64,000 nt of DNA from an uncultured Bacillota bacterium. Lineage in GTDB: Bacteria; Bacillota; Clostridia; Christensenellales; UBA1242. Below the pieces are notes generated by a model that ran no database searches, had not been told where the DNA came from, and worked only from the letters and a program-made list of their open reading frames with translations. Positions 14,306 to 62,370 of the stretch are shown here, one piece after another (within the stretch, counting starts at the first letter, position 1; the number at the start of each line of letters is the position of its first letter). Position numbers and translations under genes: made by a program. The stretch is taken from NCBI GenBank assembly GCA_947053645.1, contig CAMRTM010000001.1:9430-73429 (forward strand). Direction: 5' to 3'.

Positions 14306-15265
14306 ATGAAGGCACAAATCAGTAAATCGCTTATAGAAAGTATCATAAGGAATCAAAATACGCAGTATATAGAATCTACCAATGAAAAAGTAAATTCACT
14401 TTTAAGTTACTGCGTGGATGAACTTTCTAAAAAAACGGCATTTATCAGTCTTGATAATGTCATTTTGCAACCTATGAATGAACTTATAACTGGTGCCTTT
14501 ACAGATAATTCAAGTTTTGTTTATTTTTTAGGTATTGATAATGCGCAACTAGAGATAAACACGCTTTCAGCCACACAATTTTGGAAGAAATTCAAAGAAA
14601 GAGTGATTTTCGCATGGCAAAATCGCAATTCTAAAAAGAAAAAGAAAAAAAAGAAGAAAGATAAGGTTGAAGATAAAAAGAAAACCACTGATTTTAATCC
14701 GGAAAAATATAATTTGTATACGCTTTGCGAAGATTTACAAAATACGCTGGCAAGCAATTTATGTGTAACATCTATAGTTTATAGAGAAAATAATCGTCTT
14801 AGAATAGTTGGGAAAGACGATTTTGGCTCTAGCGTGCAAATTATAATATATCCAGTGTTTACCGATGGCGAAATTTATAAGTATTTTGTAGATAGAAAGA
14901 AAGGTTTTATTAAAATTAATAATGATATGCGTGTAACAGCACTTGAAAGTAAGGTAAATTCAGTGGGTGAGTCATTTATTGATATAATAAAAGTGTTTAA
15001 TGTGCTTTATTACAATGCAAATCGAGTTTTACCAAATCAAATCTTTATTGAAAGTTTGTTATGTAATTGCCCAAATGAATTATTTAGTGATAATGTATAC
15101 GAATCATTTATCAAAGTGTTGAATTATTTAGCTATGGCTGATGTGAAGAATTTTAAAAGTATAGTAAATCCAGATAAAGATATATTTGTAGACCAGTTAT
15201 GTGGAAATAGCGCATATGGATATAAAAAGATGATTAATAAATTGTTAGATATAAAAAATGATTGA
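14306..15265 (+). CDS. Hypothetical protein with an internal poly-lysine tract; possibly a degenerate nucleotidyltransferase-like fold
   Basis: 319 aa. Starts 8 nt after the serS stop with its own RBS (aggagaaaaaATG). KKKKKKKKKDKVEDKKK is encoded by an A-rich run that includes A8 at 14645-14652. The pattern TGAF-x10-FLGIDN loosely resembles the hG[GS]-x(9-13)-DxD NTase motif, but the acidic residues are not conserved. Confidence 0.5.
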   Translation: MKAQISKSLIESIIRNQNTQYIESTNEKVNSLLSYCVDELSKKTAFISLDNVILQPMNELITGAFTDNSSFVYFLGIDNAQLEINTLSATQFWKKFKERVIFAWQNRNSKKKKKKKKKDKVEDKKKTTDFNPEKYNLYTLCEDLQNTLASNLCVTSIVYRENNRLRIVGKDDFGSSVQIIIYPVFTDGEIYKYFVDRKKGFIKINNDMRVTALESKVNSVGESFIDIIKVFNVLYYNANRVLPNQIFIESLLCNCPNELFSDNVYESFIKVLNYLAMADVKNFKSIVNPDKDIFVDQLCGNSAYGYKKMINKLLDIKND

Positions 15266-15330
15266 TAAGATGCAATTTTATGCAAAAATATTAATTATTA
15301 AAAAATAACAAAATAGTTTGGAAAATAAGA

Positions 15331-15405
15331 CTAGTATGCACCATTCTATGCGTAAAAGTTGTGTTTTACGCATAGATTATAAAAGTTGCATACTAGTGTT
15401 TTTTA
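15331..15405 (+). terminator. Long nested hairpin plus T-run (terminator of the serS/319-aa unit)
   Basis: Outer stem ctagtatgca (15331-15340) pairs with tgcatactag (15387-15396). Inner perfect 13-bp stem tctatgcgtaaaa (15345-15357) pairs with ttttacgcataga (15364-15376). Followed by tgttttttat. Confidence 0.7.
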
Positions 15406-15544
15406 TCCCCGCTTTGATAAATATGTGACCTTAAGACCACTTCTTTCCCTATCCTATTCCACTTTTTACCCCTACTCTATTTAAAATCCCCGTGATGACG
15501 AAAGTGAATAAAAAACAGCCAAGCGGCTGTTTTTTTTGTTTGCA

Positions 15545-16165
15545 CTACCCTATTTGTAGAACGAAAGAGTAGATATCAAGTTGCTTTTTAAGGGCTTTAT
15601 AGTCTGGACAGTGCGATTTTACTTCTTCCCAAAAGGCTTTGGAGTGATTTAGGTGGACGCCGTGACAAAGTTCATGGATTACTACATATTCTATTAGTTC
15701 TTTTGGCAGGATTACAAGTCGCCAATTTAATTTCATGTTGCCCTTTCTATCGTAACTACCCCACACATGACGGGAATTAGAAAGTTTAAAACTTTTATAT
15801 ATGAGTTGCGTTTTTGCGGAAATCTCTTTGGCAATGGTAGGCAAGTGTTTTTCTGCCTCTTTATGATAGAAATCTAAGAGTTTTCCATTTTTATTACCAT
15901 GCATTAGAAGGCTGAGGTCAATATCTTCAAATCTATATTTCTGCCCAAGCAGATAGATATAAGATTGAAAAGCAAACTCGTTACGGAAAGCATTGATTTT
16001 GTTCACCCGTTTTTGTTGCTTTTCAATCCAGTGTAACTTGGAGGTTATAAACTCCTCAATAACCGCATTAGAGGCCTTTAAAGGTGCTTTTACTATTATC
16101 TCCCCTTTGCCATTTACACGCATGGAGATTGTTTTTCGTTTTTCTCTTATAAGATTATATTCCAT
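15545..16165 (-). CDS. M48-like/DUF45 (YgjP-type) zinc metallopeptidase
   Basis: HELCHGVHLNHSKAFW motif typical of DUF45. I prefer the ATG at 16165 (MEYNLIREKRKTISMRV...) over the TTG at 16204 in the ORF track, because that TTG lies inside the upstream terminator. Confidence 0.75.
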   Translation of the reverse strand: MEYNLIREKRKTISMRVNGKGEIIVKAPLKASNAVIEEFITSKLHWIEKQQKRVNKINAFRNEFAFQSYIYLLGQKYRFEDIDLSLLMHGNKNGKLLDFYHKEAEKHLPTIAKEISAKTQLIYKSFKLSNSRHVWGSYDRKGNMKLNWRLVILPKELIEYVVIHELCHGVHLNHSKAFWEEVKSHCPDYKALKKQLDIYSFVLQIG

Positions 16166-16200
16166 ACTTATATTATAGCACGATTTATAAAAATACTGAA
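16166..16200 (-). promoter_or_regulatory. Extended -10 promoter TGcTATAAT (16172-16180) placed 6 nt before the ATG (leaderless geometry)
   Basis: The minus strand reads TTCAGT-17 nt-TATAAT-ataagt-ATG. There is no SD between the -10 and the start codon. Confidence 0.5.
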
Positions 16201-16228
16201 ACAAAAAAGTGGCAAAGCCACTAATTTG

Positions 16229-16894
16229 TTAACCTTCGTATTCCCCTTGATTTTCAAGTATTTTAATTCGTTTATCAAGCATCTCTATCATACCCTTTAT
16301 TCCTAGTTTGCTAGAACCGAGATATTTTTTATTGATGTAACCCTCTCTATTAAAGTAAGGTGCATTTGGGCATACATGTATAAAATCCCCATAAACCTTA
16401 TCAGCATTGTCTAAAACGTTTTTGCGAGCATTGTCATCCACAAAGTAAAGTGTTTTAACTTCATACTGGTGTTTTATTTTGTTGAGGTCATCAAGAATCT
16501 TTGTATTAGTAGGTCGATTTTCTTTAATCTTATTAAAAGAGTTTCCCCAATTATTCCAGCCAGTAAATTTACCTAATTTCCATGTTTGGTCTTCTGTCAT
16601 TATAAGGCTGCAGTCCTCAATGGAGAATTTCTCTTTATTATTTTCCCAAAATGTTATAGTAGACATCCAAGCAGAAGCGGGATAGATTTCATTGCTATCC
16701 ATGTTAGTATGGCTGCCATCCAAATAGAAGTGAATAATGTTTGTTACCTCGCCTTCAAGTTTTCCTATTTTGGCGATTTTTTCAAACATGGAATAGACAA
16801 TGGCGGTGTCATCTTCATCAATGCTCATGCATGAGCCAAAGTCGAATACTGTTTGAAGTTCTATCATCCATACATTTACTTGTTTCTTCCTCAT
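16229..16894 (-). CDS. Hypothetical protein (221 aa)
   Basis: The ATG at 16894 lies 8 nt downstream of AAAGGAGG. The GTG at 16903 in the ORF track overlaps the SD. No family recognised. Terminator agtggc-aaa-gccact at 16203-16222. Confidence 0.55.
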   Translation of the reverse strand: MRKKQVNVWMIELQTVFDFGSCMSIDEDDTAIVYSMFEKIAKIGKLEGEVTNIIHFYLDGSHTNMDSNEIYPASAWMSTITFWENNKEKFSIEDCSLIMTEDQTWKLGKFTGWNNWGNSFNKIKENRPTNTKILDDLNKIKHQYEVKTLYFVDDNARKNVLDNADKVYGDFIHVCPNAPYFNREGYINKKYLGSSKLGIKGMIEMLDKRIKILENQGEYEG

Positions 16895-27559: not shown

Positions 27560-28288
27560 TTATTTGTCAAACAAATCTTTAGCAATTTGGTACATGATTA
27601 TTGATCCGCTTACTGCGACATTTAAGCTTTCTACCCCAACTGTCATTGGAATAGAAACTGCATACCTACATATTTTTGATATTTCCTTGCTGATTCCATT
27701 TCCTTCGTTGCCAACAACTACACCCAATGGTTGAGCAAATGAAGTCTTGAATATATTTTCTCCTTGCATATCTGCTTTTAACATACATAACTGCCATTTT
27801 GAAACAAGTTCGATAAATTTTTCACGGGACAATTCATAGATTTTCTCGTCAAAAATTGTCCCTACGCTACTTCGCACTAGTTTTGGGTTTGTAACCGATA
27901 CAGAGTCTAGCATAAATATGCTTTTAAAGCCACACGCACAAGCCGTCCTTATTAGAGTGCCGGCATTGCCCGGGTCTTGAATTCCATCAAGTACTAGGAA
28001 GTTGGTTGTAGGCTTAACTACTGCATCTTGTATGTATTCTGCAATGCATACTACTCCCTGTGGTGTTTTAGTATCAGCTAACATTTTTATTGTCGTACTG
28101 TCAGTCTTATAAACTGGATACTTTTCACCATAAATATTTAGACTTTCATCCTCTACTAAGATATATAATGGTTTTAGTCCTTTTGCAAGGGCGTCCTTTA
28201 TAATTTTTCGATTATCCAAAAAAAGGAGACTAGTCTCTTTCTTTAATTTCTTTAGATTTTTGATTAAAGAATTAGTCGCCTTTTCCAT
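27560..28288 (-). CDS. TrmH/SpoU-family RNA 2'-O-methyltransferase
   Basis: 242 aa. VVGNEGNGIS and IPM..VESLNV motifs. Position downstream of rplT matches Bacillus ysgA. Confidence 0.85.
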   Translation of the reverse strand: MEKATNSLIKNLKKLKKETSLLFLDNRKIIKDALAKGLKPLYILVEDESLNIYGEKYPVYKTDSTTIKMLADTKTPQGVVCIAEYIQDAVVKPTTNFLVLDGIQDPGNAGTLIRTACACGFKSIFMLDSVSVTNPKLVRSSVGTIFDEKIYELSREKFIELVSKWQLCMLKADMQGENIFKTSFAQPLGVVVGNEGNGISKEISKICRYAVSIPMTVGVESLNVAVSGSIIMYQIAKDLFDK

Positions 28289-28311: not shown

Positions 28312-28498
28312 AGATTTCTCCGCTCCGCTGCCGCTACGGTCGAAATGACATAATGGTAAATGCACTACGGTCGAAATGACATAATGGTAAATGCACTACG
28401 GTCGAAATGACATAATGGTAAATGCACTACGGTTGAAATGACAATAAGGTGTGCGTTTCAGTCGAAATGACAAAGGATTGAAAAGTGTACAAATGACA
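28312..28498 (+). repeat. Repeat locus A: box AGATTTCTCCGCT followed by six copies of the core GGTCGAAATGACA (three perfect, 31-bp period)
   Basis: Box at 28312-28324. Cores at 28338, 28369 and 28400 are perfect. Cores at 28431 (GGTTGAAATGACA), 28460 (AGTCGAAATGACA) and 28487 (GTACAAATGACA) are variants. Unit: CTACGGTCGAAATGACATAATGGTAAATGCA. Confidence 0.95.
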
Positions 28499-28519: not shown

Positions 28520-28861
28520 TTACTTAACCTGTGATACAAGGGCTGAGAATGCCTCTGGCTCTCTAACAGCCATGTCTGCAAGTACCTTTCTATTTAAAGT
28601 GATATTGTGGCTTTTAAGTCCTGCAATGAATTTAGAATAAGAAATTCCGTTTAAGCGGCATGCAGCATTGATTCTTGTAATCCATAATGCTCTGAAATCT
28701 CTCTTCTTTTGCTTACGGCCGATATAAGCATATTGTCCAGATTTCATTACCTGCTCTCTTGCTGTTCTATATAATTTTGATTTTGCTCCGCGGTAGCCTT
28801 TTGCACTCTTAAGAATGGAACGGCGTTTCTTTACTGCGTTTACTCCTCTTTTAATTCTCAT
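28520..28861 (-). CDS. rplT: 50S ribosomal protein L20
   Basis: 113 aa. [14 protein letters not shown]... Confidence 0.97.
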
Positions 28862-32129: not shown

Positions 32130-32223
32130 GTTATTATTATATTTTAAAGGCTGTTTTTCTATGAGTAAAAATCTTTTCTCCTTAAGTTTATTGTACCTTA
32201 AATTTATATAATGTCAAGAGTAA

Positions 32224-32326
32224 GGATTTCTCTGCTACGCCCTATCGGGCAATGGTCGAAATGACAGTGCCTTAGGCACTTTTTTATGCTTTGCTAGATT
32301 CTTGTTCCACTCAGAATGACATAGGG
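32224..32326 (+). repeat. Repeat locus B: box variant GGATTTCTCTGCT, one core, a terminator-like tail, and a degenerate second unit
   Basis: Core GGTCGAAATGACA at 32254-32266. Tail AGTGCC-TTA-GGCACT plus T5 at 32266-32285. Degenerate unit AGATTCTTGTTCCACTCAGAATGACATAGGG at 32297-32326. Confidence 0.9.
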
Positions 32327-43096: not shown

Positions 43097-43229
43097 AGAT
43101 TTCTCCGCTCCACTGCGTTCCGGTCGAAATGACAAAATGAGAGAAAATGGTCTTCAATCAAAATTACAAGGTTTAGTAAGATTTCTCCGCTACGGTCGAA
43201 ATGACAGGAAGGGTTCGGTCGAAATGACA
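43097..43229 (+). repeat. Repeat locus C: two box-plus-core units and one extra core between infB and rbfA
   Basis: Boxes AGATTTCTCCGCT at 43097-43109 and 43179-43191. Perfect cores at 43122-43134, 43194-43206 and 43217-43229. Confidence 0.95.
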
Positions 43230-58045: not shown

Positions 58046-58263
58046 AGATTTCTCCGCTCCGCCTACGGCTTCGGTCGAAATGACATAGGGAAATGGGCTT
58101 CGGTCGAAATGACATAGGGAAATGGGCTTCGGTCGAAATGACAGTGACTGAGGCACTTTTAATGAAATACAGATTGTTAGAAAGTGCGGCGGATCGCCTA
58201 GATCCCTCCGCTACAGTCGGGATGACATAAAGGGATTGGTCGGGATGACTGTGCCTAAGTCAC
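58046..58263 (+). repeat. Repeat locus D: box plus three perfect cores (29-bp period), an imperfect tail, then a diverged ATCCC/GGGAT variant unit with two variant cores and a tail
   Basis: Box at 58046-58058. Cores at 58073, 58102 and 58131. Tail AGTGACTGAGGCACTTTT at 58143-58160. Variant AGATCCCTCCGCTACAGTCGGGATGACA at 58200-58227. GGTCGGGATGACT at 58238-58250. Tail GTGCCTAAGTCAC at 58251-58263. Confidence 0.95.
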
Positions 58264-61878: not shown

Positions 61879-62370
61879 TTATTTGCTTTCTTTTTTAGTC
61901 TTGCGTGGCTTTTTACCAGTAAGTTGTGCCTCTAAGTCGGCTGTTGTATCAGTTTCAACTGGAGTTTCAATCTTCTCCTCTACTACAGTTTCCTTAACTT
62001 CTTGGGTTTTTACCTTACTTGATTTTTTATCCGCAGGTTTCTCCGCTTCTACTGTTGCAGGTTTTTCTGTTTCTTTAACTGGCTCATCTCTAAACACATT
62101 GTAGATTGCATATGCGTCTACAGAGATGTAACCTTTATTCTTGCCAGATCCTGTTTCTATAGTCACTATCTTTTTATCGCCTTCCATTTGAAGATCGACT
62201 ATAGTGCCATATACACCACTGGTTGTCAAAACCTTATCTCCACGCTTAAGTGAATTGGTTTGTTCCTGCATCTTTTGATTTTCTTTCTTATTCCTACTGC
62301 TTACAAGTATTGGATACGCAATTACTAGCAAGAGTATGAATACAATTAAAATAATTTGAGTTATATCCAT
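61879..62370 (-). CDS. yajC: Preprotein translocase subunit YajC with a long charged C-terminal extension
   Basis: N-terminal TM plus LKRGDKVLTTSGVYGTIVDL core. About 70 extra E/K/T-rich residues. Confidence 0.9.
   Translation of the reverse strand: MDITQIILIVFILLLVIAYPILVSSRNKKENQKMQEQTNSLKRGDKVLTTSGVYGTIVDLQMEGDKKIVTIETGSGKNKGYISVDAYAIYNVFRDEPVKETEKPATVEAEKPADKKSSKVKTQEVKETVVEEKIETPVETDTTADLEAQLTGKKPRKTKKESK

Follow-up and report, generated by a model that had tools for sequence, protein, structure and literature searches.

A one-armed hairpin-repeat array between rplT and an RNA methylase gene in a Christensenellales genome: a probable local amplification within an NTS/SRM-type repeat family

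The array described here occupies most of the 231-bp spacer between rplT and a SpoU/TrmH-family RNA methylase gene in an uncultured bacterium of the Christensenellales (genome G000, an 874-kb MAG of 19 contigs, rated 95% complete). The window, that is, the whole stretch of DNA that was analysed, comprises 64,000 nucleotides of contig C1. The genes around the array are all on the minus strand, with infC, rpmI and rplT upstream and the methylase gene followed by a YebC-family gene downstream. In window coordinates, the features of the locus are:

27560–28288, minus strand: gene for the SpoU/TrmH-family RNA methylase, downstream of the array (Pfam PF00588, E 2.6e-31)
28312–28323, minus strand: single 3' stem arm of the complete hairpin; reads GCGGAGAAATCT and pairs with the nearest core in the ssDNA fold (-6.1 kcal/mol)
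28324–28337, minus strand: loop or variable insert of the complete hairpin (ssDNA fold)
28338–28350, minus strand: core 1, a TGTC tag plus the 5' stem arm, TGTCATTTCGACC, which completes the hairpin (motif search, ssDNA fold)
28351–28443, minus strand: three more 31-bp units, made up of one orphan 5' half and an 18-nt filler each (Tandem Repeats Finder, motif search)
28369, 28400 and 28431, minus strand: cores of those three units, the last with 1 mismatch (motif search)
28444–28498, minus strand: two distal, decaying units with cores at 28460–28472 (1 mismatch) and 28486–28498 (3 mismatches)
28520–28861, minus strand: rplT, encoding ribosomal protein L20, upstream of the array (Pfam PF00453, E 1.8e-47)

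Tandem Repeats Finder (TRF) reported a repeat at 28334–28443 with a period of 31, 3.5 copies and 98% matches. The 13-nt core, GGTCGAAATGACA on the plus strand, was found without mismatch at 28338, 28369 and 28400 and with one mismatch at each of 28431 and 28460; a degenerate sixth copy lies at 28486–28498. The resulting core-to-core spacings are 31, 31, 31, 29 and 26 bp. The 31-bp array proposed by an earlier, sequence-only reading of this DNA, including its degenerate units at 29 and 26 bp, is thus real. The same reading held that the array fills the whole spacer. Most of the spacer is indeed filled, the element covering 187 of the 231 bases, and this figure includes the arm at 28312–28323, which had been left outside the array. 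That arm, AGATTTCTCCGC, is complementary to part of the core. Read in the gene sense (minus strand), the array consists of TGTCATTTCGACC plus filler, repeated five to six times, then a loop and then one GCGGAGAAATCT. Here, TGTCATTTCGACC is the core on the gene-sense strand and corresponds to a TGTC tag and the 5' arm of a hairpin stem; the 3' arm, GCGGAGAAATCT, occurs once. No other array of the family in this genome is as long. A CRISPR array was rejected, since the repeats of the array are separated by identical fillers and not by unique spacers. The end of the hairpin (the 28312–28323 arm) lies about 12 nt ahead of the ribosome-binding site of the methylase gene. No terminator was predicted in the spacer. 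A search of the whole window against Rfam gave no match at the gathering thresholds, and at locus D (see below) a search at E ≤ 10 gave chance-level matches only.

The core recurs within the window. When up to two mismatches were allowed, 12 copies were found, all on the plus strand; 1.3 were expected, and none of 100 shuffles contained 12 or more. The other loci of the family in the window are:

32222–32323, minus strand: second family locus, with one complete ATTTC-type hairpin, a terminator-like palindrome module and one ATTCT-type hairpin
43097–43229, minus strand: third family locus, with two arms and three cores
58046–58263, minus strand: fourth family locus (locus D), with an arm and three cores at a 29-bp period, followed by a palindrome module and an ATCCC-type arm with two GGGAT cores

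The 29-bp period noted earlier for locus D was recovered by TRF (58067–58143, 2.7 copies, 100% matches), together with sub-periods of 13 and 16 nt. An arm-motif match at 62036 was rejected as a chance match in coding sequence.

The palindrome module is a second palindromic sequence, GTGCCTTAGGCAC followed by a T-run, of which we found the compensatory variants CCGCCTTAGGCGG and GTGGCTTAGCCAC. It is present at 32267–32285 and 58144–58165 of the window and also at C1:139.7 kb, C1:161.4 kb and C7:42 kb. The module is placed between an ATTTC-type element and the next ATCCC- or ATTCT-type element, often joined by ACGCT[TA]CGCT, and on the strand opposite to that of most genes it looks like an intrinsic terminator. 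Two further observations were made outside the window. At C1:83651–84060, on the plus strand, there is an RNase P RNA-like sequence (gaggaaagtccg..., identified by eye only) that has its own terminator and is directly followed by a family element. A gene fragment is duplicated at C8:31132–33071 and C1:161087–162023, with an in-frame stop in one copy; it sits between long arrays that include the ATAC/GTAT subtype.

Genome-wide, there are 77 cores with at most one mismatch. Intergenic 5' halves (105) outnumber intergenic 3' halves (56), and together they are distributed over about 46 loci. The recurring build is an arm, a variable loop and a core, followed by zero to five more units of filler plus core: arms with one core were found 35 times, arms with two cores 19 times and arms with three to five cores 8 times. 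The TGTC-ATTTC...GAAAT-CT frame of the rplT-spacer array is seen family-wide, and the core is, as had been proposed, the conserved and selected part. The fillers had been described as differing between loci. They are not unrelated, being purine-rich on the plus strand, turning up at more than one locus (for example, t[ag]gg[ag]aaatgggcttc) and resembling decayed cores. Core spacing varies from 21 to 35 bp with modes at 23–25 and 29–33, and there is therefore no common helical phasing.

The core is one half of a hairpin and not a free-standing duplex site, because arms and cores co-vary. Five matched arm/core subtypes were found (ATTTC/GAAAT, ATCCC/GGGAT, ATCCT/AGGAT, ATTCT/AGAAT and ATAC/GTAT). 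Using a pair count that did not presuppose pairing, we obtained 59 complementary arm–core pairs versus 19.1 after permuting the stems among loci (maximum 29 in 500 permutations), and the covariation extends across TTC/GAA, CCC/GGG, CCT/AGG and TCT/AGA stems. The stem consists of 5 bp, an internal loop and then 3–4 bp. The terminal loop may hold a nested hairpin; in other family copies, the loop position measures from 3 to about 25 nt and often contains a nested GC hairpin. When the array was folded as ssDNA, the arm paired only with the adjacent core, through ATTTC/GAAAT and CCG/CGG, and the remainder was unstructured. The fold energies of the array, calculated for RNA and for DNA, were no better than those of shuffles, and the evidence for the hairpin is therefore the covariation.

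The distribution of the family among relatives is patchy. In a genus sample of 121 genomes, only five carried more than two copies: G000 (72), G115 (148), G056 (26), G095 (15) and G135 (6). G115 is a syntenic sister species, co-linear with G000 at approximately 81% nucleotide identity. Eleven orthologous spacers nevertheless differ between the two, with 0–9 cores in G115 versus 0–6 in G000, and several are full in one species and nearly empty in the other. The orthologous rplT–methylase spacer contains one element in G056 and none in G095 and G001, with unchanged gene order. We regard the family as dynamic; a conserved control site it is not. A non-coding block of approximately 200 nt was found in both species (C1:73750–73960, just past the end of the window, and G115 L246:1900–2120). 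This conserved block, in a spacer with differing repeat content, may be a structured RNA or a leader.

The exact arm-plus-core pair was also found in at least 120 metagenome contigs, ranging from 30 to 70% G+C, and in 6 viral contigs. These share 25 specified bases, a 12-nt arm and a 13-nt core. A search of metagenome contigs for an exact 28-mer from the rplT end gave no match. In one viral contig (L042), the canonical NTS and the ATTTC type are both present. For sequences from presumably very distant hosts, these loci (metagenome, L046–L165; viral, L040–L045) exhibit unusual conservation at the nucleotide level.

A class of hairpin repeats, termed NTS/SRM, has as its partner Ssn, a single-domain GIY-YIG nuclease of about 94 aa (Chenal et al., Nat Commun 2025, PMC11893778). 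Ssn binds the hairpin solely as ssDNA, with cleavage a few nucleotides to its 5' side; SsnA shows no binding to RNA, the ssn gene typically has repeats on its flanks, and the partner proteins were assigned to CDD family cd10448 (PMC11893778). The NTS of Neisseria is CGTCATTCCCGCGMAVGCGGGAATCYRG (PMC11893778). The gene-sense element described here, TGTC-ATTTCGACC-loop-GCGGAGAAAT-CT, has the frame of the Neisseria NTS, CGTCATTCCCGCG..GCGGGAATC.

We searched for genes of this kind in the relatives. G115 encodes a 93-aa protein that consists of a GIY-YIG domain only (PF01541, 62 bits; L030:1447–1725, minus strand), and its gene has ATTTC-type repeats identical to those of the rplT-spacer array on both flanks. 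The 96-aa homologue in G135 is flanked by ATTCT/ATCCT subtypes, and, among the metagenome contigs with the exact arm-plus-core pair, three (L087, L113 and L149) have the same small gene beside the hairpin, with repeats on both of its flanks. In the proteins of the G115 type (93–96 aa), the catalytic Tyr/Tyr/Glu residues are at the positions reported for SsnA, shifted by one. Comparison of the G115 nuclease with solved structures and NCBIfam models yielded no informative match. A profile built from five such proteins retrieved 590 relatives, of which the best 80 come from many phyla and are 52–67% identical. Among these best 80 of 590, GTC-AT-stem hairpins were present within 700 nt at 79 loci, amounting to 340 hairpins in total versus approximately 29 in shuffles. 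At the locus of a Caldilineaceae homologue (L212), TGTCATTCCCGCGAACGCGGGAATCCA is found on both flanks, which is the NTS consensus with T as the first base. In contigs of gammaproteobacteria, alphaproteobacteria and Anaerolineae, and also in L111, one-armed arrays of like build lie next to ssn homologues.

Within the genus sample, the gene was present in G086, G115 and G135 only. In G000, which is 95% complete, PF01541 matched UvrC only, and neither the protein nor the family profile, used as queries, retrieved anything at E ≤ 10. In the G000 region that is syntenic to the G115 cassette (C9:31964–32181), the two neighbouring genes join cleanly and no remnant of a repeat is left. At this site, then, no assembly gap conceals the ssn gene; it could lie elsewhere, in the missing 5%. 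As to the two species as a filled and an empty site, the cassette in G115 (C11:7725–8365; L248) measures about 700 bp, is built of repeats, the ssn-like gene and repeats, and is positioned exactly between two genes that abut in G000. No obvious target duplication is visible.

The arrays are polar. The TGTC-sense strand is the leading strand, as judged by GC skew, in 40 of 44 single-orientation loci (binomial p = 1.7e-8), and the same holds for 52 of the 53 5' halves in 40 kb of G115. Of the 20 loci with at least one opposed neighbouring gene, 18 are oriented with the leading strand. Both neighbours are opposed at three loci only, so that the effects of replication and transcription are not firmly separable. 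A leading-strand orientation bias is known for IS200/IS605. Strand polarity is not a general property of the class: on a complete Dehalococcoidia chromosome with the gene, the repeats form inverted pairs, with 37 on the plus and 34 on the minus strand. A separate observation concerns the window at about 14600–16600 (C1, approximately 24–26 kb). There, the GC skew changes from about +0.2 to -0.1 and gene orientation from plus to minus, such that the genes are convergent, and the region resembles a replication terminus. On the side of C1 with positive skew, there are no family elements.

Cores also decay with distance from the hairpin. Family-wide, the mean number of mismatches by rank from the hairpin was 0.15, 0.96, 1.70 and 1.89 (first versus last, Wilcoxon p = 1e-6). 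Cores of rank 1 are constrained by pairing, and the informative rise is that from rank 2 onward. This outward rise suggests that new units arise beside the hairpin and that older ones decay outward. The progressively degenerate units noted earlier at the rplT spacer are an instance of this family-wide gradient.

The repeat is real and belongs, as an ordinary member, to a known class; its host lineage is new and its array architecture is under-described. We consider it probable (roughly 75%) that it arose by local tandem amplification within one copy of a dispersed hairpin-repeat family of the NTS/SRM kind, the partner of which is, elsewhere, Ssn. The assignment of the family to this kind was made because the frame matches and because Ssn-like genes are linked to the repeats in relatives and across phyla. 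A protein partner for the family, as anticipated by the sequence-only reading, probably exists.

Could the array instead act at the RNA level, as a stabiliser, a processing site or a translational modulator by the ribosome-binding site of the rplT–methylase mRNA? Both flanking genes run in the direction of the tagged strand here and in 24 of 44 loci, the spacer lacks a predicted terminator and the hairpin ends just before the ribosome-binding site. Moreover, many REPs are transcribed, as argued by Di Nocera et al. (PMC3733652). We consider such a role unlikely, however, given that there was no Rfam match, that the folds were no better than those of shuffles and that the orientation agrees with the leading strand, and not with the neighbouring genes, in 18 of the 20 loci with an opposed neighbour. 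In addition, the content of the spacers is not conserved between syntenic species, and SsnA is without RNA binding (PMC11893778).

It is quite improbable that the assembly of a short-read MAG gave a false copy number (three identical units), and this concern would apply to the count and not to the identity of the element. The MAG is in 19 contigs, and some contigs do end near family elements (for example, C1:188238–188341 of 188,455 bases and C7:942–1045), but the identical block measures only about 110 bp, and arrays of like build are present in independent assemblies from other taxa.

The sequence-only reading had interpreted the repeats as an iteron-like protein-binding array with every core on one face of the duplex. 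Such an array would bind a regulator or initiator and so control rplT or the methylase gene. The invariant core and the locally regular period of 31 or 29 bp, approximately three helical turns, agree with this. Yet we regard it as very improbable. The spacing of 21–35 bp does not place the cores on one face of the duplex, the family occupies 46 dispersed intergenic loci and not one control region, and the core co-varies with a complementary arm, as expected of half a hairpin. No replication gene is nearby. The element is missing from the orthologous spacer in G095 and G001, where gene order is unchanged, which argues against a regulatory array, and the partner of the class binds single-stranded DNA hairpins (PMC11893778) and not duplex iterons. 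A false lead is thereby removed: the iteron or regulator reading at rplT is not supported. The chance that the repeats are classical REP/BIME sequences mobilised by a RAYT (an IS200/IS605-type tyrosine transposase) is close to negligible, since, despite the small extragenic palindromes in mosaic clusters and the leading-strand bias like that of IS200/IS605, the five carrier genomes contained no Y1 transposase (PF01797) in a search in which control genomes gave matches, and the tag is TGTC and not GTAG (PMC3733652).

Beyond local amplification within an NTS/SRM-type family, there is a further reading, tentative and of low probability. The one-way arrays may be the footprint of Ssn-type repeat multiplication, by cut-and-repair or template switching on ssDNA at the replication fork. 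We suggest this because the extra 5' halves are on the side that Ssn cuts, because they decay with distance and because of the leading-strand bias; with the tagged strand on the leading strand, the tagged sequence is in the lagging-strand template. In the more probable reading, that of local amplification, the last 5' half is the one able to pair with the single 3' arm and give a tagged hairpin, the other cores being orphan 5' halves. With it we infer that the hairpin would form in ssDNA and be bound, and cut just 5' of the tag, by a putative Ssn partner, where present, and that new half-units would be added by slippage or repair at the hairpin-proximal border. Older units would then be pushed outward and decay. 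G000, which yielded no ssn gene, probably carries the array as a passenger that plays no dedicated part in regulating rplT or the methylase gene, and any effect on their transcript would be incidental. The less probable fork-linked multiplication on ssDNA would be analogous to that of IS200/IS605. If the footprint reading is true, the clean empty site in G000 versus the cassette in G115 would be direct evidence of cassette movement.

These results place a small-genome lineage of the Christensenellales among the carriers of Ssn-type hairpin repeats. They also show that a cosmopolitan subtype, with 25 specified bases and found in at least 120 metagenome contigs of 30–70% G+C, escapes the published SRM search string. 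In G000, the string had 1 match versus a mean of 0.8 in 20 dinucleotide shuffles, and no family copy matched. The polar half-site arrays, the decay gradient and the filled and empty cassette site are testable clues to how such repeats spread.

How does the array compare with known systems? It shares with the iterons of plasmids and origins the direct repeats of a short conserved core at a roughly regular period. It differs from them in having no fixed phasing and no replication gene, in being present at dozens of dispersed loci and in that its core is half a hairpin. Pneumococcal BOX elements and the BIMEs of E. coli are, like the family described here, modular mosaics in which complementary end modules enclose internal units in varying number. 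The family has no sequence relation to BOX or BIME, and its units are half-hairpins whereas theirs are whole modules.

The CGTC/TGTC-tagged REPs, including Neisseria dRS3 (Di Nocera, De Gregorio and Rocco 2013, PMC3733652), are alike in their terminal unpaired TGTC tag, in a stem whose first pairs are A-T and T-A and in the short tail behind it, as well as in their extragenic location and in having no dedicated transposase. The described CGTC families have perfect stems of 8–9 bp and loops of 4–5 nt, and they form mostly head-to-head dimers, with negligible head-to-tail dimers and rare clusters (PMC3733652). The copies described here differ in being head-to-tail, clustered and polar, with bulged stems and longer loops.

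Compared with the NTS/SRM repeats of PMC11893778, the present family has a bulged stem, a loop that can hold a nested hairpin and one-way arrays with extra 5' halves, and no ssn gene was found in G000. The host is a small-genome member of the Bacillota, whereas the examples in PMC11893778 are mostly Gram-negative. The two have in common a GTC tag directly 5' of the palindrome, an AT-initiated stem with a C directly 3' of it and a high-copy intergenic distribution. They also share, in relatives and elsewhere though not in G000, a single-domain GIY-YIG gene for a protein of about 94 aa that lies between the repeats.
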